A stretch of DNA of 64,000 nt from a virus: positions 32,001-96,000 of the IMG/VR virus record IMGVR_UViG_3300045988_169928. One strand, given 5' to 3'. The notes under the pieces are model-generated. The model made no database searches and was not told the origin of the DNA. It saw only the letters and a program-made list of their open reading frames with translations. The position numbers and the translations under genes are program-made. Position 1 is the stretch's first letter; every line of letters starts with the position of its first letter. Shown here one piece after another: positions 12,675 through 57,936 of the stretch.

Positions 12675-13244
12675 CTATTTTGTATGCCCATAAGTGGACA
12701 ACACATAAGCTAATCGATTTTCCAGATAACCTAAATCAATTTCAAACTTACGTAATTTATTAATAATATCCACGTAATAATCAGTTTCACGGTTCATTAT
12801 ATCTTGATGATCGCCAAACCAATCACATAACAAATTTAAATTCTTACGAATCCGTTGAATATCCACCTTAGAAATTTCATTTACTAATTCAACTTGGTTT
12901 ACCACAGCCCAGTTGAAAGCTACAATTTCCAAATATTGAGCTACCAACACCATATAAACCCCCGGGTGGGAATGAAATAAGTTAGTTTGTTCAATGTATT
13001 CCTCAAACTGACCGGTGGTAGATGAAGTATTAGTAAACTTAACTGGTAGGTAACTACTGGTAACTTTAGTAAACAGATATAGTAATCGAGAAGTTGATAA
13101 ATCCGGTTGCCCATACCCATTAAAATCAGATAAGTAACGGTCGGGTATTACAACCTTATCATCATTAGTTACATTTAATAGCTTATATAATAAATATTGC
13201 TTATAAGTAATACTTGGAAATACACTTGCTGTACTAACCGCCAT
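12675..13244 (-). CDS. Hypothetical baseplate or tail protein.
   Basis: ORF of 189 aa, operon position only. Confidence 0.35.
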   Translation of the reverse strand: MAVSTASVFPSITYKQYLLYKLLNVTNDDKVVIPDRYLSDFNGYGQPDLSTSRLLYLFTKVTSSYLPVKFTNTSSTTGQFEEYIEQTNLFHSHPGVYMVLVAQYLEIVAFNWAVVNQVELVNEISKVDIQRIRKNLNLLCDWFGDHQDIMNRETDYYVDIINKLRKFEIDLGYLENRLAYVLSTYGHTK

Positions 13245-30113: not shown

Positions 30114-30211
30114 ATGTTCTAATAACTTCCTTTCATCTAGATGAATATCTATTTATTAATTCTAAGTACAATATAGATAAACCCTTGTTCTAAAATTAAT
30201 ATAAGAAATTA

Positions 30212-30248
30212 TAACAAAAACAAAAAGACCATGAACGTTAATTCATGG
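30212..30248 (-). terminator. Rho-independent terminator after the portal gene.
   Basis: Hairpin CCATGAA-cgttaa-TTCATGG (30229-30248). On the minus strand it is followed by cTTTTTgTTTTTgT (plus-strand acaaaaacaaaaag at 30214-30228). Confidence 0.6.
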
Positions 30249-30364
30249 CCTCTTTGCATTGTAGAAAGACAAATCAAAGAAAAGAAAGAAGTTTTATCAC
30301 TCGGCTTGACTAAAGCCTTGACTATATATTAACACACTCTATCAAATTGTCAACACTTTATCGA

Positions 30365-31915: not shown

Positions 31916-33753
31916 TCACCAAATTCCTTTACATCTGTCACCCCATACTCACGTTGTAAGTCGGTCTGTTCTCCATTAAATAATTCCGGTGATAAAAACT
32001 GCATTTCAATAGCGTTCCGATGTGCTAACGCATACTCTTTCATCAACTTATCTAGACCCACAAAGGAGTAGACTAATGTTTGCATTGCATGATCAGGCCC
32101 TTTACGTAAAATAACCTTGTCATATACAATCGTATGTGTAGCCGGATCTTCCTTTTCATCAGTTCTAAAGACAACATTTTGGACGTGCTTAATAAAAGTT
32201 TGAATAATTGGGTCTAACCGTGAACCCCGCCAAAACTTAATATCGCCACGCTTAATGTTAGCAATCATCATCATATTCTGTGTGTACTTATCAATAGTAA
32301 CTGTATTATCAGCGTCACTGAAATGTGAATTGTAGTCACCATTGGTTTTAGCTGATCTAACCTTAACAGAGTATACCCTTTCAGAGCCATAGTAAGCTAA
32401 CAACTTTTGATCATATGACCCAGAAAAACCTAAGTCTGGACAAATAATATCAGGGTTGTACTGATTAATCTTTCTAACCACTTGGTTTAAATCTTGTTCA
32501 ATATGTTCAGCACCAGTTGACCGAGGAATAAAAGTAATATCCATAAGTCTAATTTGACCGGTGGTAGTCATTCCAATAGTCACAACAGTATGGTTATGTT
32601 CTCCCCAATCAATCCCGGTTGCTACGAACCGATATTCGTCTGTTCTCTGTTCGGGCTTTTCATAATCAATTTCATTAGAGTATACATCATAATCGTGAAA
32701 GGCCACGGACTTATCTTCATAAGGCATACCTAAAGAATAGTTATAGAAAAACTGTTTTGATGGTGCCCGTAACTCATCTTGCTTGAGCTGATCGGCACTC
32801 ACCCACACGGCGTCCATTTGAGAAATAGAATACCCATGTGTCCGTCCGGCTAGTGGTCGTTCAGTTACCCAATGACCACTATACCAACGATCTAAAGGAC
32901 GCCCACACTTAGCACAGACAAACTGGAAGGTACCGGGTTGTACTGTTAAACCAATATCATCAACCCCATCTGGGTTAATTTGTTGAATATTCTTTTCATA
33001 GTCCAATACTTGTTCATACCCACAATGTGAACATTTGTGGTACCAGCGCCGTTGATCAGATTGTTCAAATAGTTTGTGGATCCCGTATGATGGGACGGTC
33101 GGGGTACTCCATCGGCGCAACATTTTATACTTTGAAGAAGTCATACCTTGCAAAGCTGATTGTTCCGCTAATGGGTTTAGCCTGTCATACTCATCAAGAG
33201 AAACGAAATCCAAGTCCATACCTTCCATAGTAGCCCCGCTAGAACTGGAGCGGAAAACTAAATTTGAATCTCTAATCTTCATCTTCTTTAAAGTCATCGA
33301 TTTAGGATCATAAATCAATGAACGATAATAACCATGATTAAATTCAGGTTGTAAACGTTGGGCTACAAAGTCCTCCAACTGTCGATTAGTTGGGAAAGTA
33401 TACAAAGCATTGACCCGATCAAATGAATGTGTATCTAACCACCAGATTAATTGTTCAATCCCTAATTCAGATAACCCTAACTGCCGGGACTTAATAATAA
33501 TCACATCTTGATAGGTGTCATTTAAAATACCAACTTGAAATGTACGGTGAGCCAAAGCCCGATTAATATTATGGTCAGGAATATTAAAGGTAATCGGATT
33601 TCCCCGAATTGTATGGTTAGCAACAATATAGTTACTAGGCTTACTCATCATCAATACATAATTTAATTGATCCATCGTTACCCGATCATCTGGGGAAAGT
33701 TTAAACATCTTTCTGGTAGCTTTAACCAGTTGAGTACCATTCAATAATAACAC
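31912..33753 (-). CDS. Terminase large subunit.
   Basis: ORF of 613 aa. It has a deviant Walker A (IIIKSRQLGLSELG), a Walker B (LDFVSLDEYDRL) and a C-terminal RNaseH-like nuclease region (GIDWGEHNHTVVTIGM). Confidence 0.85.
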   Translation of the reverse strand: MLLLNGTQLVKATRKMFKLSPDDRVTMDQLNYVLMMSKPSNYIVANHTIRGNPITFNIPDHNINRALAHRTFQVGILNDTYQDVIIIKSRQLGLSELGIEQLIWWLDTHSFDRVNALYTFPTNRQLEDFVAQRLQPEFNHGYYRSLIYDPKSMTLKKMKIRDSNLVFRSSSSGATMEGMDLDFVSLDEYDRLNPLAEQSALQGMTSSKYKMLRRWSTPTVPSYGIHKLFEQSDQRRWYHKCSHCGYEQVLDYEKNIQQINPDGVDDIGLTVQPGTFQFVCAKCGRPLDRWYSGHWVTERPLAGRTHGYSISQMDAVWVSADQLKQDELRAPSKQFFYNYSLGMPYEDKSVAFHDYDVYSNEIDYEKPEQRTDEYRFVATGIDWGEHNHTVVTIGMTTTGQIRLMDITFIPRSTGAEHIEQDLNQVVRKINQYNPDIICPDLGFSGSYDQKLLAYYGSERVYSVKVRSAKTNGDYNSHFSDADNTVTIDKYTQNMMMIANIKRGDIKFWRGSRLDPIIQTFIKHVQNVVFRTDEKEDPATHTIVYDKVILRKGPDHAMQTLVYSFVGLDKLMKEYALAHRNAIEMQFLSPELFNGEQTDLQREYGVTDVKEFGE

Positions 33754-36095: not shown

Positions 36096-36135
36096 TTATA
36101 AACCCCTTTTCTGTACTTGTTCTAATAATAATATA

Positions 36136-36167
36136 TCAAAAACAAAAGCCTAGGCTGTTACACCTAG
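36136..36167 (-). terminator. Candidate terminator downstream of the endolysin gene.
   Basis: Short hairpin CTAGG-ctgttaca-CCTAG followed on the minus strand by cTTTTgTTTTTg. The stem is only 5 bp. Confidence 0.35.
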
Positions 36168-36246
36168 ACTTTAACATGGAAAACTATTTGAAGGAGGATA
36201 GTATTAACTGTCTTTAGTATAACATACTATTACCATCTGTCAACCA

Positions 36247-45179: not shown

Positions 45180-45252
45180 GCTAATTTAGCTCAATTGGCA
45201 GAGCGCCTGCCTTGTAAGCAGGAGGCTACAAGTTCGATTCTTGTAATTAGCA
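45180..45252 (+). tRNA. tRNA-Thr (anticodon TGT).
   Basis: I folded the cloverleaf by hand. The acceptor is GCTAATT/AATTAGC with discriminator A. The D arm is GCTC-AATTGGCA-GAGC. The anticodon arm is CCTGC-CTTGTAA-GCAGG. The T arm is ACAAG-TTCGATT-CTTGT. Confidence 0.85.
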
Positions 45253-45316
45253 TTGTTGGCCATTTCTAACTTTCTCTTTTTTATCAATTCCCACTAGATC
45301 TTGTGGCCAACATTTT

Positions 45317-45405
45317 GGAGAATTACCCAAGTTGGTTGAAGGGGCACCCCTGCTAAGGGTGTAGGCCGGGAAACTGGTGCGAGAGTTCGAATCTCTCATT
45401 CTCCG
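45317..45405 (+). tRNA. tRNA-Ser (anticodon GCT), a class II tRNA with a long variable arm.
   Basis: The acceptor is GGAGAAT/ATTCTCC with discriminator G. The anticodon arm is CACCC-CTGCTAA-GGGTG. The variable arm is TAGGCCGGGAAACTGGTGC. The T arm is GAGAG-TTCGAAT-CTCTC. Confidence 0.85.
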
Positions 45406-45510
45406 TTGCAACATCAACATATTGTTGAACCGTTGCAAACCTGACCGATATTTGATAATTTTTAGCCCGTAAAAATTTTGCAGTCGCTATTAGTTCAGGT
45501 TGTTTAAGTG

Positions 45511-50130: not shown

Positions 50131-50880
50131 ATGAAATATAAAGAATTTATTCAAGCAGTTGATTCATTAACTAATGAGGCTTTAGTAGCAAACAAGGAGG
50201 CTATTCCTTGGAAGGTCGATATTGATGATCAAGATGTTAAAGTAGTTAATCAAAAGACGGGTCAGCCATTGCTTAAAATCAGTAAACATACTTATGGTAC
50301 TATGCTAGTATATCAACTAACTGATTCAACAGCAGTTAGTATCTTTGAGGAGGCGGTTTTGCTTAATGAAACTCCTCTAGATGAACGTGATGAAGTTGTT
50401 AATTACAATCCCTTACATGATTCCATTAACTTTTTGAAGGAAGTATCTAGCCAACTTACTCGAGGGTTGACCCAACAAAACTGGAACTCAAATGGGGAAG
50501 AATATCGGACGTTTTACTTTGTATGTTTCAAGTTGTGGGCAACCAAAGAATTTGTAACAGTTAATGGCCCACACTTACAAGGGTCTTTATCATTAAAATG
50601 TAAGTCTACGGACACTTTTGAGGATAAGATTAAGAGTTTGATTCATATGGCTAACATATTCAAAGACGCCTTATCTTTGCGTGAAGAAACCATTAATTCG
50701 GCTTTGGAAGTTCTAGATGACCATAAAGATGATCCATCACTCCAGTTTAGCATGGGTAGGATTATCATTAATAACAAGCATATTATTATCTCTACTGATT
50801 CTGGTGCCTACTTCATGTGGACAAATAAGCCAACCTATTTTGGATCACAAAAAAAGTTCCACGAAATCCTTGACGACTAA
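50131..50880 (+). CDS. Hypothetical protein.
   Basis: ORF of 249 aa. Confidence 0.45.
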   Translation: MKYKEFIQAVDSLTNEALVANKEAIPWKVDIDDQDVKVVNQKTGQPLLKISKHTYGTMLVYQLTDSTAVSIFEEAVLLNETPLDERDEVVNYNPLHDSINFLKEVSSQLTRGLTQQNWNSNGEEYRTFYFVCFKLWATKEFVTVNGPHLQGSLSLKCKSTDTFEDKIKSLIHMANIFKDALSLREETINSALEVLDDHKDDPSLQFSMGRIIINNKHIIISTDSGAYFMWTNKPTYFGSQKKFHEILDD

Positions 50881-50899
50881 ACTTTAGTATGCTATTATA

Positions 50900-51480
50900 A
50901 TAAATGTAAACTTGAAGTGGGTGAATAAGGGTCTTGCAAACCCGCCCCTCATGATTACCTGTAAAGCACCTAAGACGTGGTTAAATGGTAGCTTAACTAT
51001 TTCAATTGGTAACAGGTAATAGTGTTACCAACTAGAGAAAAAAATCTAGGGTGGTGGTAATCATGGAAATTAGCTTGAGGATTTAGGGTAGCCACGGACT
51101 GGCTAACCACAATACTATACCCGTAGTTAAATCGCCTTGAACAAGCGAATGACCCAAAGCGGGAGGTCTCATTAAGGTAGTTACCGATGAAGCGTGGTAA
51201 CACGTGTATAACAGTCCAGTGGTGTATGAGTAGCTAACGGTACATAAACAGCAAATTTATGTATATTACAATCTATGCTTACGCTTAGTGAAAGTTGGTG
51301 GGTACCGATCCCAGCCCAGCCTTGGCCATTTGCTATCAGAGCTGTTTGTTGACGAATAAATAGTAAGCCTGATAGGTGCTGTCACCTAATAAAGTCTGTT
51401 TGCTGATATTCCACGTAAACCAATACGCAAGTTTATAAAAGAAGCTCACTACCCAATATGGGTGGTGGGCTTTTATTGTA
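50900..51480. ncRNA. Second candidate structured non-coding RNA of about 0.6 kb, possibly ROOL/GOLLD-class.
   Basis: A 615-nt gap (50881..51495) in an otherwise tightly packed plus-strand operon. It is GC-richer than its flanks and has multiple stems, for example TTGGTAACA-ggtaatag-TGTTACCAA at about 51004-51029 and GTTACC-gatgaagcgt-GGTAAC at about 51180-51202. Confidence 0.35.
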
Positions 51481-52489: not shown

Positions 52490-53428
52490 ATGGTAAAACG
52501 TAAAACAGATAAACAATTTAAACAAGAGGTCTTTGACCTAGTAGGTAATGAATATACATTCTTAGATACTTATGTTAATACTATGACTAAGATAAGAGTT
52601 AAACATAATAAATGTGGGAATACCTACGAGGTAACACCTGATAATTTTCTACATGGCAATCGTTGTTCATATTGTGCAGGTAATGCTAGGAAAACAGATA
52701 AACAATTTAAACAAGAAGTATTTGACCTAGTAGGTAGTGAATACACATTTTTAGATAAATATGTTAATAGTCAAACCAAGTTAAGGGTTAAGCATAATAA
52801 TTGTGGAAATGTTTACAGGGTTATCCCCAATAATTTTCTTAGGGGTAAGCGTTGTTCATATTGTTATGGTAATACTAAGAAAACAGATAAACAATTTAAA
52901 CAAGAAGTCTTTGACCTAGTAGGTAATGAGTATACATTCTTAGATCCTTATGTTAGTAACGAGACTAAGATAAGAGTTAAACATAATAAATGTGGAAATG
53001 TATATAAGGTAATACCCACTAATTTTCTTAGGGGTAAGCGTTGTCCTTTTTGCACCGACACCCCTAAAGGTGAACTTATTATCATTAAAATTTTAGATAA
53101 GCTAGGTATTAATTATGATTACCAGAAAACGTTTGATGATCTGAAAGATGATAGGCTTTTATCCTATGATTTCTATCTTCCAGATCAGAATATCCTAATT
53201 GAGTACCAAGGACTACAACATTACCAACCAATTGATTACTTTGGTGGAGAAACTAAGTTTAAAATCCAACAGAAACATGACCAGATGAAGTTGAATTATG
53301 CTAAAAAACATGGATACAATTTAATCTTAGTTCCATACACAGTAGATACTTTACCTAAGATTATGAAGGATCTGGCCAATGGTATTAAGGCTTACTATGG
53401 AAATCCAGAGGTTGGTTTCTACAACTAA
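52490..53428 (+). CDS. Putative homing endonuclease: three tandem zinc-ribbon repeats, a PD-(D/E)XK domain (DUF559/Vsr-like), and a C-terminal 22 aa that copies the upstream gene's C-terminus.
   Basis: ORF of 312 aa with three ~62-aa repeats (KTDKQFKQEVFDLVG.EYTFLD.YV...TK.RVKHN.CGN.Y.V.P.NFL.G.RC.YC). YDFYLPDQNILIEYQGLQHY matches the DUF559 motif. The C-terminus IMKDLANGIKAYYGNPEVGFYN is a protein-level duplicate of the upstream gene's end but with divergent codons. Confidence 0.55.
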   Translation: MVKRKTDKQFKQEVFDLVGNEYTFLDTYVNTMTKIRVKHNKCGNTYEVTPDNFLHGNRCSYCAGNARKTDKQFKQEVFDLVGSEYTFLDKYVNSQTKLRVKHNNCGNVYRVIPNNFLRGKRCSYCYGNTKKTDKQFKQEVFDLVGNEYTFLDPYVSNETKIRVKHNKCGNVYKVIPTNFLRGKRCPFCTDTPKGELIIIKILDKLGINYDYQKTFDDLKDDRLLSYDFYLPDQNILIEYQGLQHYQPIDYFGGETKFKIQQKHDQMKLNYAKKHGYNLILVPYTVDTLPKIMKDLANGIKAYYGNPEVGFYN

Positions 53429-53508: not shown

Positions 53509-55374
53509 ATGGCAACACTAACTAAATCATCTGAAACGATGAAGTTAATTTATCCTAAGGAAACTAATACACGTCCACACGTTGCAACACAATACAATGA
53601 TAACGCATTAAATAATGTTGCAGGTTCTTCGTCCAAGAATATCTTCCTATTAGGATCAGCAACAGAAGGCAACCCAGATAATATCTATGAAGTTAAATCA
53701 TCTTCCCAAGCTCGGGCCATTTTTGGGTCTGGTGATCTGGTTGAAGCAATGGAATTAATCTGGAACCCAACAGGTAGCTACTACCAAAATGGTGGGACAA
53801 TCTATGCACAACGGGTTGAAAATGCAACCCAAGCTCAATTGGTCAAGGGGCCTTTAACTTTTACTTCTACTGTTTATGGGGCAAGTGCTAATAAGGTATC
53901 TGTTTCATTTAACAAGAACCCTGTATCTGGGGCTTATGATTTCCATGTTGATTATGAACCCAAGATGTATTCCCAAACGTACATGAGTATTGGTAATCTC
54001 TTTACGATTGGTTATGACCCGACTTCTTCCAATGTAACGGGGGCTGGGTATAAGATTACAGGTGATCTTTCTGGTGCCCAAACCTTTGAGATTGTACTGA
54101 ATACGTCTGGTGCGTCACAACCAGTCCTAACGATGGATTTAACCAGTACCGCTTACAATAACATTGGTAAGGTTATTACAGCAATTAGTGCATTACCTGG
54201 TTTTACCGTTACCACATTAAAGAGCTGTGCTAACATTGATTCAACCACTTTGGACTTGACCAGTGGTAGTGGTTATCTTACTTTGGGGACTGGTTCCGCA
54301 CCAACCACGATTACCGACTTCTATGGTGACTTACTTTACACCACTCGCTATGATGATTATGTAGGTATTAGTGTTAATCGTTTAGGGGCACCAACAGGTG
54401 TAAGTGCCGAGGCTAGTGGTAGTGACACGGTAGTTACTGCTAATGCACAAGAGATCACTTTTGTACCATTTGACGCTACTAATCTTTCTGGCGGTAGCGA
54501 TGGTAATGTACCAGTTTCATGGGCTGATAAGTTCCAGAACGTTCATGAGGTCAATGCTTACTACATTGTTCCATTGACGAGTGAAGAAAACATTCACGCC
54601 GAACTGAAAGAGTTCTTAAATGAAGAAGAAATTCTTGGCTACAACTACTTTGGTTGGGTTGGTGGTGGATTTAATGAAAGTATGAGCGCCGCCATCAACC
54701 GGCAAACGGCTTTAAAGTCTGATCGTATTGCCTTAGTAGCTAACTCTGGGTATTACAATAGTCTCAGTGGGAAAGTCGTTCACGCACCTGCTTATCTAAT
54801 GGCCGCCTATGTAGCGGGGGTTGCTAGTTCCTTGGGTGTTGGCGATTCTGTTACCCACAAATATCTGGAATTAACTAGTCTTGACCAAAATTTCAATGGT
54901 GATGAATTGAACGCCCTTGATGATAATGGGGTTATCGCAATTGAGAAGGTAGTTAACCGCAACCAATCTGGTGGCTACCGGATTGTCGAAGATGTTACTA
55001 CTTACAACTCCACGAATGAACCAGTTAAGAACCTAGTTTCACTTCGGGAAATCACCGACTACTTATTTGATGATCTTCGTATCTATCTTGAAGATACCTT
55101 TATCGGTTCCAGCGTAGTAAATACGACAGGGAGTTTAATCGCTAGTTTTATTGAAGCATTCTTGAAGCAAAAGGTTAGTGAAGGTCTGTTAGCAAGTTAT
55201 GATCAGCAAAGCATTACTTGTACCATTGATGGTAATAGCGCCTACGTTGCCTTTAGTGCCGCACCTGCACGTGAAGTACGGACAATTCTCGTAAGTGGTA
55301 CTTACACTAACTTCACTAGCACAACTTCTCAAGACAATTCTAATTATACTACCAATAATGGTGTAACTGGTTAA
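53509..55374 (+). CDS. Tail sheath protein.
   Basis: ORF of 621 aa. The N-terminal block NIFLLGSATEGNPDNIYEVKSSSQARAIFGSG...GGTIYAQRV and the C-terminal block VHAPAYLMAAYVAGVASSLGVGDSVTHKYL resemble conserved contractile-sheath motifs. The call is from memory of the family, not from an alignment. Confidence 0.6.
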   Translation: MATLTKSSETMKLIYPKETNTRPHVATQYNDNALNNVAGSSSKNIFLLGSATEGNPDNIYEVKSSSQARAIFGSGDLVEAMELIWNPTGSYYQNGGTIYAQRVENATQAQLVKGPLTFTSTVYGASANKVSVSFNKNPVSGAYDFHVDYEPKMYSQTYMSIGNLFTIGYDPTSSNVTGAGYKITGDLSGAQTFEIVLNTSGASQPVLTMDLTSTAYNNIGKVITAISALPGFTVTTLKSCANIDSTTLDLTSGSGYLTLGTGSAPTTITDFYGDLLYTTRYDDYVGISVNRLGAPTGVSAEASGSDTVVTANAQEITFVPFDATNLSGGSDGNVPVSWADKFQNVHEVNAYYIVPLTSEENIHAELKEFLNEEEILGYNYFGWVGGGFNESMSAAINRQTALKSDRIALVANSGYYNSLSGKVVHAPAYLMAAYVAGVASSLGVGDSVTHKYLELTSLDQNFNGDELNALDDNGVIAIEKVVNRNQSGGYRIVEDVTTYNSTNEPVKNLVSLREITDYLFDDLRIYLEDTFIGSSVVNTTGSLIASFIEAFLKQKVSEGLLASYDQQSITCTIDGNSAYVAFSAAPAREVRTILVSGTYTNFTSTTSQDNSNYTTNNGVTG

Positions 55375-55382
55375 TTTTAGGG

Positions 55383-55507
55383 TTGACATATTGTAATAGT
55401 ATGTTATGATTAAGTTAATACTCCATATATAGTTTTGATGTCAGTCAAAGGACATTCCTAGTGGAAAGGCTGTCTTGTATTAGTTTACAAGGTGGTCTTT
55501 TTATTTT
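55383..55507 (+). ncRNA. Promoter P1 plus a ~90-nt transcript ending at terminator T1; candidate small RNA 1.
   Basis: TTGACA (55383-55388), a 16-nt spacer, then TATGAT (55405-55410). The terminator is CTTGTA-ttagtt-TACAAG followed by gtggtcTTTTTATTTT (55474-55507). There is no ORF. Confidence 0.45.
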
Positions 55508-55518
55508 AGAACAATCTA

Positions 55519-55700
55519 TTGACATTACCATATCAAAATGATACTATATAGTTACATTAATTTAGTCGTTAAGTTAATGTTGGTTAAGTTTACTAACCCC
55601 TTGGTAGCAAAGTATTGTGACGAGACTTGTGCGGTAGGTAGCTTGACATTATTCAGTGCAAAGGCTGTCTTGTATTGGTTTACAGGACAGTTTTTATTTT
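55519..55700 (+). ncRNA. Promoter P2 plus a ~145-nt transcript ending at terminator T2; candidate small RNA 2.
   Basis: TTGACA (55519-55524), a 17-nt spacer, then TACTAT (55542-55547). The terminator is CTGTCTTGTA-ttggt-TACAGGACAG followed by TTTTTATTTT (55665-55700). The 3' ~45 nt repeat the 3' end of sRNA 1. Confidence 0.45.
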
Positions 55701-55720
55701 AGATTTTTTAACAAAAAGTA

Positions 55721-55749
55721 TTGACACTATCTCTACTTGTGGTATTATA
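55721..55749 (+). promoter_or_regulatory. Promoter P3 for the 55796 gene cluster.
   Basis: TTGACA (55721-55726), a 17-nt spacer, then tgGTATTATA (55741-55750), which may be an extended -10. Confidence 0.55.
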
Positions 55750-55795
55750 TAGTTGTCGAAAGGATAAGGACAAAAAGAAAAGGAGAATCATAATT

Positions 55796-55951
55796 ATGGA
55801 TAAGAAGTACGAAGATTACAGTTTTGAAAACGACTTAGGTTATGACGAATACCTTTGGTATCGTGATCACCCAGAAGAAGCTAAGAAGGAAAAGGGATAC
55901 GAGTTTGACCAATGGCAAAAGCAAGCCATCATGGACGACAAGGCAGAGTAG
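55796..55951 (+). CDS. Small acidic protein.
   Basis: The likely start is the ATG at 55796 (MDKKYEDYSF..) with the RBS AAAGGAGA. The ORF track begins at an upstream Met at 55721. Confidence 0.45.
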   Translation: MDKKYEDYSFENDLGYDEYLWYRDHPEEAKKEKGYEFDQWQKQAIMDDKAE

Positions 55952-57235: not shown

Positions 57236-57524
57236 TAAAACCTGTCCGTACTGTCACGAACAAAAGGACATAATTAACACACTGGATCATAGTCGGATTT
57301 ATGTTGCCGGTATGGAACAACCCGGTCAAGTTGTTCATATCTATGATAATCGACTGATCTGTGAGGAGCAGACAATCGAATCACGAAAAATTAATTTTTG
57401 TCCAATGTGTGGACGAAAACTTGACAATGGTAAAGAGAAACATAAAACAAAACCTAAGGCCGATAGTAAGAAACCAAAAACAAATTATATTGATGAAGTA
57501 TTAACGCAGTTTGAAAGAAAATAA
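57216..57524 (+). CDS. Zinc-ribbon protein.
   Basis: ORF of 102 aa containing CPYCHEQ...CPMCGRKL. Confidence 0.45.
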   Translation: MVKMGNNKTCPYCHEQKDIINTLDHSRIYVAGMEQPGQVVHIYDNRLICEEQTIESRKINFCPMCGRKLDNGKEKHKTKPKADSKKPKTNYIDEVLTQFERK

Positions 57525-57543
57525 ATCTAGGAGTGAAAGACTA

Positions 57544-57936
57544 ATGACAATGGATAATCAAGCAGAATTAGTAAACAAGTTGAGTGACCAAGTTCCCCAG
57601 ATGTTAGAGGATATTAATAAGCTAACTAAGAAGTTAGATGATTTAGAACGAAAGGCTAAGGAAACTCAAGCGTTGTGCAATGAGTTGAAGCAAGGTCAAC
57701 CTAAGCGACAAAAGGGTGGAGTTAAGATTAGTTTTGCCCCGCTAGATTCCGGTCTTAAATTCCAAGAATTGGTCTTTAGCAATGTTAGTGAAGCTGAATC
57801 AGCCTTGGGTTCTTCTCGTGGTTCCATTGGTAAGCGGTTGGCAGGTAAGATTAAGTCACTTTCTTTCAATGCGACTTATAAGGGTAAGGAAGGAATTGCA
57901 GTTGTTAAGGTAACACCACACATTGAATTACCATAG
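57544..57936 (+). CDS. Coiled-coil protein with a C-terminal NUMOD1-like HTH motif.
   Basis: The likely start is MTMDNQ.. at 57544 (RBS GGAGTGAAAG). FSNVSEAESALGSSRGSIGKRLAGK resembles the NUMOD1 / homing-endonuclease-associated DNA-binding motif. Confidence 0.4.
   Translation: MTMDNQAELVNKLSDQVPQMLEDINKLTKKLDDLERKAKETQALCNELKQGQPKRQKGGVKISFAPLDSGLKFQELVFSNVSEAESALGSSRGSIGKRLAGKIKSLSFNATYKGKEGIAVVKVTPHIELP

Follow-up and report, generated by a model that had tools for sequence, protein, structure and literature searches.

Two promoter-to-terminator units without open reading frames, candidates for early small RNAs, downstream of the tail-sheath gene in a relative of Lactobacillus phage LfeInf

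The locus and its phage

We analysed 64,000 nucleotides (nt) of viral DNA (IMG/VR record IMGVR_UViG_3300045988_169928, positions 32,001 to 96,000 of the record; hereafter the window) and describe here two short units, each running from a promoter to an intrinsic terminator without a translatable open reading frame (ORF), that share a single 421-nt spacer. The late tail-sheath gene lies upstream of this spacer and a cluster of small early genes downstream of it. Three promoters (P1, P2, and P3) alternate with two terminators (T1 and T2); a predicted RNA1 extends from P1 to T1 and a predicted RNA2 from P2 to T2 (Table 1). Lactobacillus phage LfeInf, a member of the genus Hopescreekvirus (Herelleviridae) that infects Limosilactobacillus fermentum, is 92.7% identical to the window at the nucleotide level over the 601 nt that were queried, which makes the two phages close relatives.

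Table 1. Positions of the features discussed in the text. Coordinates refer to the window unless a contig (L number) is given; aa, amino acids; bp, base pairs.
Feature	Position	Strand	Remarks
Tail-sheath gene	53509-55374	+	PHROG 279, E 4e-105
P1, sigmaA-type promoter	55383-55410	+	TTGACA 55383-55388, 16-nt spacer, TGtTATGAT, 11/12 matches
Predicted RNA1	55417-55508	+	~90 nt, no ORF; ends in terminator hairpin
Cassette copy 1 (T1 + P2)	55460-55553	+	Tandem duplicate of 55655-55754
T1, intrinsic terminator	55465-55508	+	15-19 bp stem with four G-U pairs, 6-nt loop, U-tract
P2, sigmaA-type promoter	55519-55547	+	TTGACA 55519-55524, 17-nt spacer, TGaTACTAT, 10/12 matches
Predicted RNA2	55554-55703	+	~150 nt, non-coding; indels of 4, 3, 3, and 6 nt between variants
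RNA2 5'-terminal hairpin	55554-55580	+	11 bp in the window; starts at the predicted start site
Shared module (whole RNA2 body)	55557-55659	+	103 nt; homologous to L. fermentum prophages and L025 2456-2572
Cassette copy 2 (T2 + P3)	55655-55754	+	Ancestral sheath-to-early-gene junction
T2, intrinsic terminator	55660-55703	+	15-bp stem, 6-nt loop, U-tract
P3, canonical early promoter of a dispersed family	55721-55748	+	TTGACA 55721-55726, 16-nt spacer, TATTAT, 11/12
P3 transcript leader	55749-55795	+	Conserved ATAGTTGTCGAAAGGA; Shine-Dalgarno AAGGAG (55780-55785)
First gene of the P3-driven small-gene cluster	55796-55951	+	51 aa; kept in all lineages compared
U3, ORF-less mini-unit	36135-36243	-	Promoter, ~72-nt RNA containing AUCCUCCUU, terminator; between endolysin gene and 199-aa gene
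U4, ORF-less mini-unit	30210-30353	-	Promoter, CU-rich RNA of ~106 nt, terminator; between portal and major-head genes
Free-standing group I ribozyme	L035 992-1195	+	
Free-standing group I ribozyme	L036 641-844	-	
Free-standing group I ribozyme	L037 2619-2827	-	
Free-standing group I ribozyme	L038 532-740	-	

Promoters and terminators

The three near-consensus promoters proposed in the first-pass annotation of this sequence are present where it had placed them, at 55383, 55519, and 55721, with 10-11 of 12 hexamer matches and spacers of 16-17 nt. P1 begins 8 nt past the sheath stop codon. All three promoters carry a TGn extended -10 element, while the -10 hexamers match the consensus at four to five of six positions. 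Both strands of the window were scanned with a strict pattern (exact TTGACA, TGn, and TAnnnT with at most two mismatches), which gave seven sites compared to a mean of 0.16 and a maximum of 3 in shuffled sequences. Three of the seven fall within the 420-nt locus, and all seven are intergenic and aimed at a downstream feature. In their sequence, their spacing, and the way their hexamers are kept while the spacer varies, the promoters of the locus have the features typical of extended -10 promoters of the sigmaA/sigma70 type.

P3 was earlier suggested to drive the small-gene cluster, and its family membership agrees with this. It is one of a dispersed family of early promoters that share a conserved leader, ATATAGTTGTCGAAAGGAT, followed by a Shine-Dalgarno sequence and an ATG, and at least eight near-identical sites with a P3-type promoter and leader could be identified in LfeInf. 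As LfeInf encodes its own sigma factor, we infer that host-type promoters such as these are early. Since P3 lies past T2, P2 can serve only RNA2 or read-through of T2.

The first two promoters had also been described as being followed, about 90 and about 145 nt on, by a strong terminator and no ORF. The distances from the predicted start site to the end of the terminator are 88 nt (unit 1) and 145 nt (unit 2), and the hairpins, with energies of -18.7 kcal/mol for T1 and -18.6 kcal/mol for T2, are far more stable than those of shuffled sequences (z = -4.7 and -4.6; none of 200 shuffles as good). Each hairpin is followed by UUUUUAUUUU. Both thus combine a stem-loop with a U-tract, and in both the pairing is kept in relatives, as is typical of intrinsic terminators. 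T2 was detected by a consensus terminator scan and T1 by an RNAfold-based scan; the consensus scan missed T1 because of the four G-U pairs in its stem. No Shine-Dalgarno sequence or start codon could be identified inside the two predicted transcripts, and the description of them as promoter-to-terminator units without a translatable ORF holds.

Conservation among close relatives

Relatives were recovered via the sheath protein. Five variants have at least 90% sheath identity, namely the window, LfeInf, and the contigs or contig groups L017, L018-L020, and L040-L043, and the order P1-T1-P2-T2-P3 is present in all five. The neutral level of identity can be taken from the 4-fold sites of the sheath gene, which are 0.70 identical between the window and L018.

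Despite this divergence, all 14 specified positions of P2 (-35, TG, and -10) are identical in the five variants, whereas its spacer varies. The 14 specified positions of P3 are likewise all identical between the window and L018, again with a variable spacer. The -35 of P1 is invariant in all five variants and its -10 reads TATGAT, TATTAT, or TAGGAT. Every stem position of T1 and T2 stays paired in all variants, and the changes that occur are valid only as G-U pairs in the RNA of the + strand, apart from one compensatory change per terminator. For T1 these are one-sided G-U-compatible changes and a compensatory change from U-A to C-G in L018. That the hexamers and the terminator pairing are kept at a neutral identity of only ~0.70 argues that making and ending these transcripts matters.

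Duplication of a terminator-promoter cassette

In two sister lineages, L026/L022 (86% sheath identity) and L024/L025/L021 (82%), just one terminator precedes P3 and the first small gene. Because they carry only this one terminator-promoter junction, both mini-units are additions in one lineage. More distant sheath relatives (59-63% identity) have plain sheath-terminator-next-gene layouts and were of no help here. The T2-P3 segment is collinear with the single L026 junction through the leader ATATAGTTGTCGAAAGGA, while T1-P2 diverges past ATATAGTT.

The two terminator regions had been noted as copies of one element of ~45 nt. This repeat is real, as a 46-nt sequence at 55460-55505 and 55655-55700 with 80% identity overall and 93% over the first 30 nt, but it is only part of a longer one that includes the promoter that follows. 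The duplicated unit is a cassette of ~95 nt made up of a terminator and the promoter after it (families D1-D3, in register and 195-202 nt apart). When the repeat was searched for elsewhere, a 25-mer from it gave two copies in the window at up to three mismatches (0.00 expected), and the complete genome of LfeInf likewise has no more than two. A dispersed terminator motif can therefore be rejected. Collections of metagenomes and genomes contained no exact match to the repeat. Five additional 17-mer matches in viral contigs lie inside unrelated sequence and were dismissed as chance. The modular duplication, called unusual in the first-pass annotation, is explained as a tandem copy of the ancestral junction between terminator and early promoter, which is single in the sister lineages.

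On the evidence of these comparisons, the locus holds two intact, selectively maintained promoter-to-terminator units without ORFs, built by cassette duplication and sequence capture.

The RNA2 body is shared with prophages of the same host

RNA2 begins with a 5'-terminal hairpin and ends in the T2 hairpin. In LfeInf and L017 the changes in the 5' hairpin are to G-U pairs and preserve it, whereas L018 and L040 have a 9-bp version with a change on both sides. The whole body corresponds to a module that is also found in L. fermentum prophages, with 84-87% identity over 87 nt in L035 and 77-79% over 103 nt in L036, L037, and L038; a further copy is found in L031. These prophage copies were located by pattern scans and via "hypothetical proteins" called over them. 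A DnaC-like gene next to the prophage module has homologues in L. fermentum.

A copy also exists in the lytic sister phage L025, which does not have the two units past its sheath gene. It lies inside the tRNA operon, in the same orientation as the tRNAs, and is 0.81-0.83 identical to the window-type copies compared to a neutral expectation of 0.54-0.60. The sequences flanking this copy resemble the two halves of a tRNA-Tyr (z = 5.3 for the 3' end). We also observed that L025 2446-2617 (+) as a whole looks like a tRNA-Tyr-like pseudogene with 7-bp acceptor-type pairing, the interior of which is replaced by the RNA2-like module. The 5' hairpin of RNA2 is absent from the module copies in L025 and L031.

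The alleles of the module are mosaic. The 3' half of the L018 copy agrees with prophage L031 at 56 of 57 positions and its 5' block matches that of prophage L035, while identity between L018 and the window across the module is just 0.69. The mosaic alleles indicate that the module is exchanged between lytic and temperate phages of one host, and such exchange accounts for the apparently neutral divergence inside the lineage.

Four prophage copies have flanking sequence (L035-L038), and in all of them the module adjoins a group I catalytic ribozyme (RF00028, 67-68 bits, E ~1e-15, full model covered). The ribozyme is intergenic, lies on the opposite strand to the module and antisense to the flanking phage genes, and has no recognisable exons; no 3' exon ORF was found after it. 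An extended -10 sequence is located just upstream on the ribozyme strand. Some 64 nt past the ribozyme the module follows as its reverse complement, with an intrinsic terminator behind it that is functional on this strand only. The ribozyme core resembles introns in the tape-measure and DNA-polymerase genes of other phages. From this layout we infer that the prophage probably makes a ribozyme-linked RNA, the 3' part of which is antisense to RNA2.

RNA1 and two further mini-units

The predicted RNA1 has an unpaired, CU-rich 5' part (ACUCC in the window; AUCCUCC in LfeInf and L040). Over 25-27 nt, P1 shares 92% identity with a promoter at 36243(-), and the likeness runs on into the transcribed part as GTTAATACT...CC...ATAGTTTT (z = 5.1, p ~0.001). 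Judged from this similarity, the mini-unit U3 at 36243(-) has a paralogue in P1 together with the 5' part of RNA1. In addition, RNA1 contains a leader-like relic, ATATAGTT...AAAGGA.

The AUCCUCCUU sequence in the RNA of U3 is a perfect anti-Shine-Dalgarno sequence, and the RNA of the second mini-unit, U4, carries a long CU-rich run. Both are highly conserved between the window and LfeInf. The RNA part of U3 is identical at 87 of 87 positions, compared to 91.6% in the flanking endolysin gene, and that of U4 at 114 of 115, compared to 95.4% in its flanks; the flanks of both units together span 91.6-96.9% identity. With U3, U4, and the paralogy of U3 and RNA1, the phage has a small set of orphan promoter-to-terminator units, from one of which RNA1 is a diverged copy. 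When viral contigs were scanned for the patterns of RNA1 and U3, LfeInf alone was returned.

The sequence TTAGAACAA occurs after three terminators in the window and in LfeInf, namely T1 (55505-55513), U3 (36125-36133, - strand), and U4 (30185-30193, - strand). After T1 it is not kept in L017 or L018.

Coding potential and known RNA families

The sole long ORF of the spacer (55538-55702, 54 aa) would encode a small hydrophobic protein across RNA2. No stop interrupts its frame in the window, L017, or L018, and over the prophage copies gene callers proposed proteins of 82-115 aa. Four of the five indels in the body are multiples of three, and a first count of substitutions seemed biased toward third codon positions. 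The ATG, however, lies inside P2 between the -35 and the -10, upstream of the predicted start site, and has no Shine-Dalgarno sequence. The frame is cut short in LfeInf by a 4-nt insertion, and the internal ATG is missing in L018 and L040. When nine copies of the RNA2 body are compared, 16, 14, and 20 columns vary at codon positions 1, 2, and 3, which is no third-position excess, and the 3-nt indels lie in an ATT/TTA-rich run that is prone to slippage. In short, no start codon or Shine-Dalgarno sequence within the transcript, no conserved frame, and no codon-position bias could be identified.

The prophage "hypothetical proteins" over the module were rejected as genes, as they have no codon bias and, like the ORF of the RNA2 region, no matches in Pfam, PHROG, or PADLOC. 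The C-terminal part of these "proteins" is invariant because it is antisense to the group I ribozyme core. A reverse-strand ORF was likewise discarded, being interrupted by stops in the window and L017 and extending across the terminator.

Analysis with Rfam gave no match at the gathering score in 55300-55850 and, at E up to 10, only chance-level matches of at most 16.4 bits; the L025 copy had no match either. The RNA2 body is not a tRNA according to ARAGORN and the Rfam tRNA model, neither of which found anything, and its alignment to phage tRNAs was no better than that of shuffled sequences. A type III toxin-antitoxin system of the ToxI kind was also discarded, the RNA bodies having no tandem repeats and the downstream proteins no significant PADLOC match. 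The sole PADLOC match at E ≤ 0.01 among the neighbouring small proteins is a marginal one to DruC, for a 141-aa protein at 57511-57936 (E 0.0037, 13.8 bits).

Origin and possible function of the units

The comparisons show three steps in the origin of the units. The ancestral junction of terminator and early promoter was duplicated in tandem. A 103-nt segment that circulates among L. fermentum prophages and lytic phages was placed between P2 and T2, and the promoter of the 36243(-) unit was copied, together with its 5' leader, to the front of T1. On entry of the DNA, the host sigmaA RNA polymerase would start at P1, P2, and P3. The P3 transcript would cover the small genes, while those from P1 and P2 would stop at T1 and T2, so that the two units are predicted to yield early untranslated RNAs of ~90 and ~150 nt.

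We tentatively favour the reading that these are small regulatory non-coding RNAs expressed early in infection. RNA2 might act via its homology and either base-pair with its counterpart RNA in co-resident or competing phages or mimic it; its body being shared with prophages of the same host suggests that phages interact in this way at the level of RNA. Both RNA1 and its paralogue U3 may act via the exposed CU-rich stretch that resembles an anti-Shine-Dalgarno sequence. Terminator hairpins at the 3' end and hairpins at the 5' end stabilise small RNAs in Firmicutes. A function of the RNAs is preferred for the following reasons. P2 serves nothing but RNA2 unless T2 leaks, and T2 is redundant for insulation. 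The RNA2 body lies behind strong promoters at two loci in the same orientation and is exchanged with prophages. Finally, the RNA1 paralogue U3 is unusually conserved.

Several observations weigh against a regulatory role. A conserved fold of the RNA2 body was not found with RNAalifold (energy ~0 on both strands, nine copies), and the folding energy of RNA2 is ordinary (z = -0.8). Duplexes of RNA1 and RNA2 with the P3 leader and three translation-initiation regions were no better than those of shuffled sequences. Within the lineage the RNA bodies change at about the neutral rate (0.71 identity for RNA1 and 0.68 for the middle of RNA2, compared to 0.70 at 4-fold sites). Both units are dispensable for this type of phage, since two sister lineages do without them, and with only five close variants the arguments from conservation rest on few independent events. 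The region is also a patchwork, in which P1 is a copy of the 36243(-) promoter and RNA1 holds a leader-like relic. As for individual targets, a 14-nt match at 13030-13043 was rejected, being in sense orientation and at chance level.

Much of this would be expected if the RNAs were functionless by-products of a shuffling of promoter and terminator cassettes that traps passenger fragments. Selection would then act only to insulate the early cluster from late read-through of the sheath gene, which a pair of terminators does more tightly than a single one, and to keep early promoters strong. What was duplicated is indeed a terminator-promoter cassette rather than an RNA, and the P3-type promoter with its leader is a dispersed repeat. 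The neutral rate of the RNA bodies, the missing fold, and the sister lineages without units also fit, and there is precedent for such cassettes and their recombination (PMC2839356, PMC4122927). Yet a useless promoter that faces a terminator should decay, and P2 has all its specified positions intact over ~30% neutral divergence. T2 would be redundant with T1 if only insulation mattered, but its pairing is kept. It is also hard to see a mere passenger in a 103-nt segment that stands behind strong promoters at two loci in two lytic lineages, in the same orientation, and the alleles of which keep being exchanged with prophages. We regard this explanation as doubtful, though it is the main rival to regulatory small RNAs.

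A more specific form of the regulatory reading is suggested by the ribozyme next to the prophage module. RNA2 might be an antisense RNA that neutralises the ribozyme-linked prophage RNA, or else a sense mimic, in a conflict between phage and prophage. Its expression would be driven by one of the strongest early promoters of the phage (in the sister lineage, by the tRNA operon), and it would pair with the prophage RNA, while recombination would keep its alleles matched to those of the prophages in circulation. As it stands, we consider this version unlikely.

The first-pass annotation had also named attenuators and decoys, both of which are possible readings. As promoter-proximal attenuators, T1 and T2 would be leaky or regulated, P1 and P2 would add a tunable or antitermination-dependent dose to the genes downstream, and the short RNAs would be the "off" products. 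A promoter, a short leader, and a terminator ahead of genes is the classic attenuator layout, and the inverted repeat with which RNA2 opens might bind a factor. The mini-units U3 and U4 lie directly upstream of late genes (the 199-aa gene and the major head gene), and U3 leaves scarcely any room for another promoter. At the present locus, however, a full early promoter with the standard leader of its family follows T2, so that read-through is not needed. The two hairpins are long, with stems of 15-19 bp, and have good U-tracts, no alternative antiterminator fold is apparent, and the 5' hairpin is lacking in other module copies. No antiterminator protein was found among the neighbouring genes, the whole genome not having been searched for one. 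With P3 past T2, attenuation fits U3 and U4 better than the two units described here, for which we consider it quite unlikely.

The locus, with its strong promoters, inverted repeats, and AT-rich spacers, could also act at the level of DNA, as a sink for RNA polymerase, a transcription-activated replication origin, or a recombination hot spot, in which case the content of the RNAs would be irrelevant. Three very strong promoters within 420 nt, palindromes at 55537-55558 and 55554-55580, and the recombination evident from the allele mosaicism are in line with this. The hairpins are nevertheless kept through G-U pairs that are valid only in + strand RNA, and no iterons or tandem repeats were seen, which makes a DNA element very unlikely. 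Least credible of all is a small protein encoded across RNA2, given the position of its ATG, its broken frame, and the lack of codon bias described above.

Genes and RNA genes around the locus

The genes that follow from 55796 form a run of small + strand genes without known function, after which come an SbcD-like nuclease and a helicase. These genes separate the sheath gene from the tail-tube gene by ~10 kb (also seen in L024, 7356-19179), whereas the tube gene lies within ~2 kb past the sheath gene in relatives with 63% sheath identity (L023). Just upstream of the sheath gene, a 312-aa protein (52490-53428, + strand) contains three KQFKQEV...treble-clef zinc-ribbon repeats and a C-terminal domain. 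It has CapR/DUF4379 matches, and similar genes are found downstream of the sheath gene in L012, L015, and L023. This looks like a mobile gene of the homing-endonuclease type. The L018-L020 variant has a TnpB/IS605 OrfB gene (390 aa) ~2.8-3 kb upstream of the sheath gene (L018 1-61; L019 and L020 1-216).

The window also contains a tRNA operon with two tRNA genes (45180-45406) and a ROOL RNA gene (50893-51438, + strand; RF03087, 124.6 bits, full-length). The ROOL gene is preceded by a sigmaA-like promoter of its own (-35 at 50870) and followed by a strong terminator (51440-51474). The style of promoter and terminator in ROOL and the tRNA operon is the same as in the two ORF-less units. A ROOL RNA gene is also present in the sister phages L024 and L025, and the tRNA array of L025 has four tRNAs compared to two in the window. 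In the literature on LfeInf, no study of transcripts or RNA was found.

Comparison with known systems

Lactobacillus phages matter in food fermentation. To our knowledge, a role is known for very few of the small RNAs that lytic phages of Gram-positive bacteria make, and for none in Lactobacillus phages. The present locus offers two compact, deletable candidates with located promoters and terminators, and the sister phages without both units provide a natural control. Lytic phages and prophages of one host share and exchange the RNA2 sequence, which in the prophages adjoins a free-standing group I ribozyme, and this could reveal that competing phages interact through RNA. Should the RNAs prove inert, the locus would still be an example of terminator-promoter cassette duplication and fragment capture outside T4-like phages.

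The stacking of three strong host-polymerase promoters within a few hundred bases before early genes is reminiscent of the early promoters A1, A2, and A3 of phage T7. These are in tandem and all read into the early operon without terminators between them, unlike the promoters here, which are separated by T1 and T2. A strong promoter with a strong terminator close by and a short untranslated RNA in between is also seen at P_R'-6S RNA-t_R' of phage lambda. There the promoter is strong and constitutive, the terminator follows within ~200 nt, and antitermination by Q gates the late operon. In contrast, the present locus has an independent promoter, P3, past the terminators, and no Q-like factor was identified among the neighbours.

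The stable RNA species 1 and 2 of phage T4 (RNA C and RNA D) are located in a tRNA gene cluster and have no known function. The L025 copy of the RNA2 module resembles them in lying between tRNA genes of a phage tRNA operon, but the module in the window is served by a promoter and a terminator of its own. The RNA anti-CRISPRs and the pseudo-ToxI of phage PhiTE are phage-borne sense mimics of RNAs with a known protein partner. As in these cases, the lytic phage studied here carries a short non-coding sequence of another genetic element of its host. RNA2, in contrast, is a putative mimic or antisense RNA, and its body has no tandem repeats.

Members of the Herelleviridae are reported to express short and long non-coding RNAs of unknown function, for example the short non-coding RNAs of phage K, and ROOL/GOLLD-like long non-coding RNAs are found near tRNA genes in this family (PMC10383478). 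RNA1 and RNA2 would likewise be ORF-less transcripts of a lytic Firmicutes myovirus, the genome of which also carries ROOL. Unlike the expressed RNAs, they are predictions, and they have no relationship to them in sequence or Rfam family.

The closest parallel to the duplicated cassette is found in T4-type phages. Their PeSL cassettes are intergenic composites of ~100 nt in which a terminator stem-loop is combined with a strong early promoter of the sigma70 type. These cassettes recur within a genome, undergo duplication and recombination, and are behind differences among closely related phages (PMC2839356, PMC4122927). In the window a terminator and a promoter are similarly joined in one cassette, which was duplicated in register and is collinear with the single junction of the sister lineages. 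The stem-loop is placed differently, ~15-25 nt upstream of the -35 instead of between the -35 and the -10 or over the -10 as in PeSL; the ends of the stem-loops lie 18-25 nt before the -35. The dispersal differs as well, since the promoter with its leader has at least eight copies in LfeInf but the terminator part only two. Furthermore, the cassettes flank non-coding segments rather than ORFans, and the phage belongs to the Herelleviridae and has a Gram-positive host. Taken by analogy, the arrangement is PeSL-like in how it arose and like a small-RNA gene in its form.

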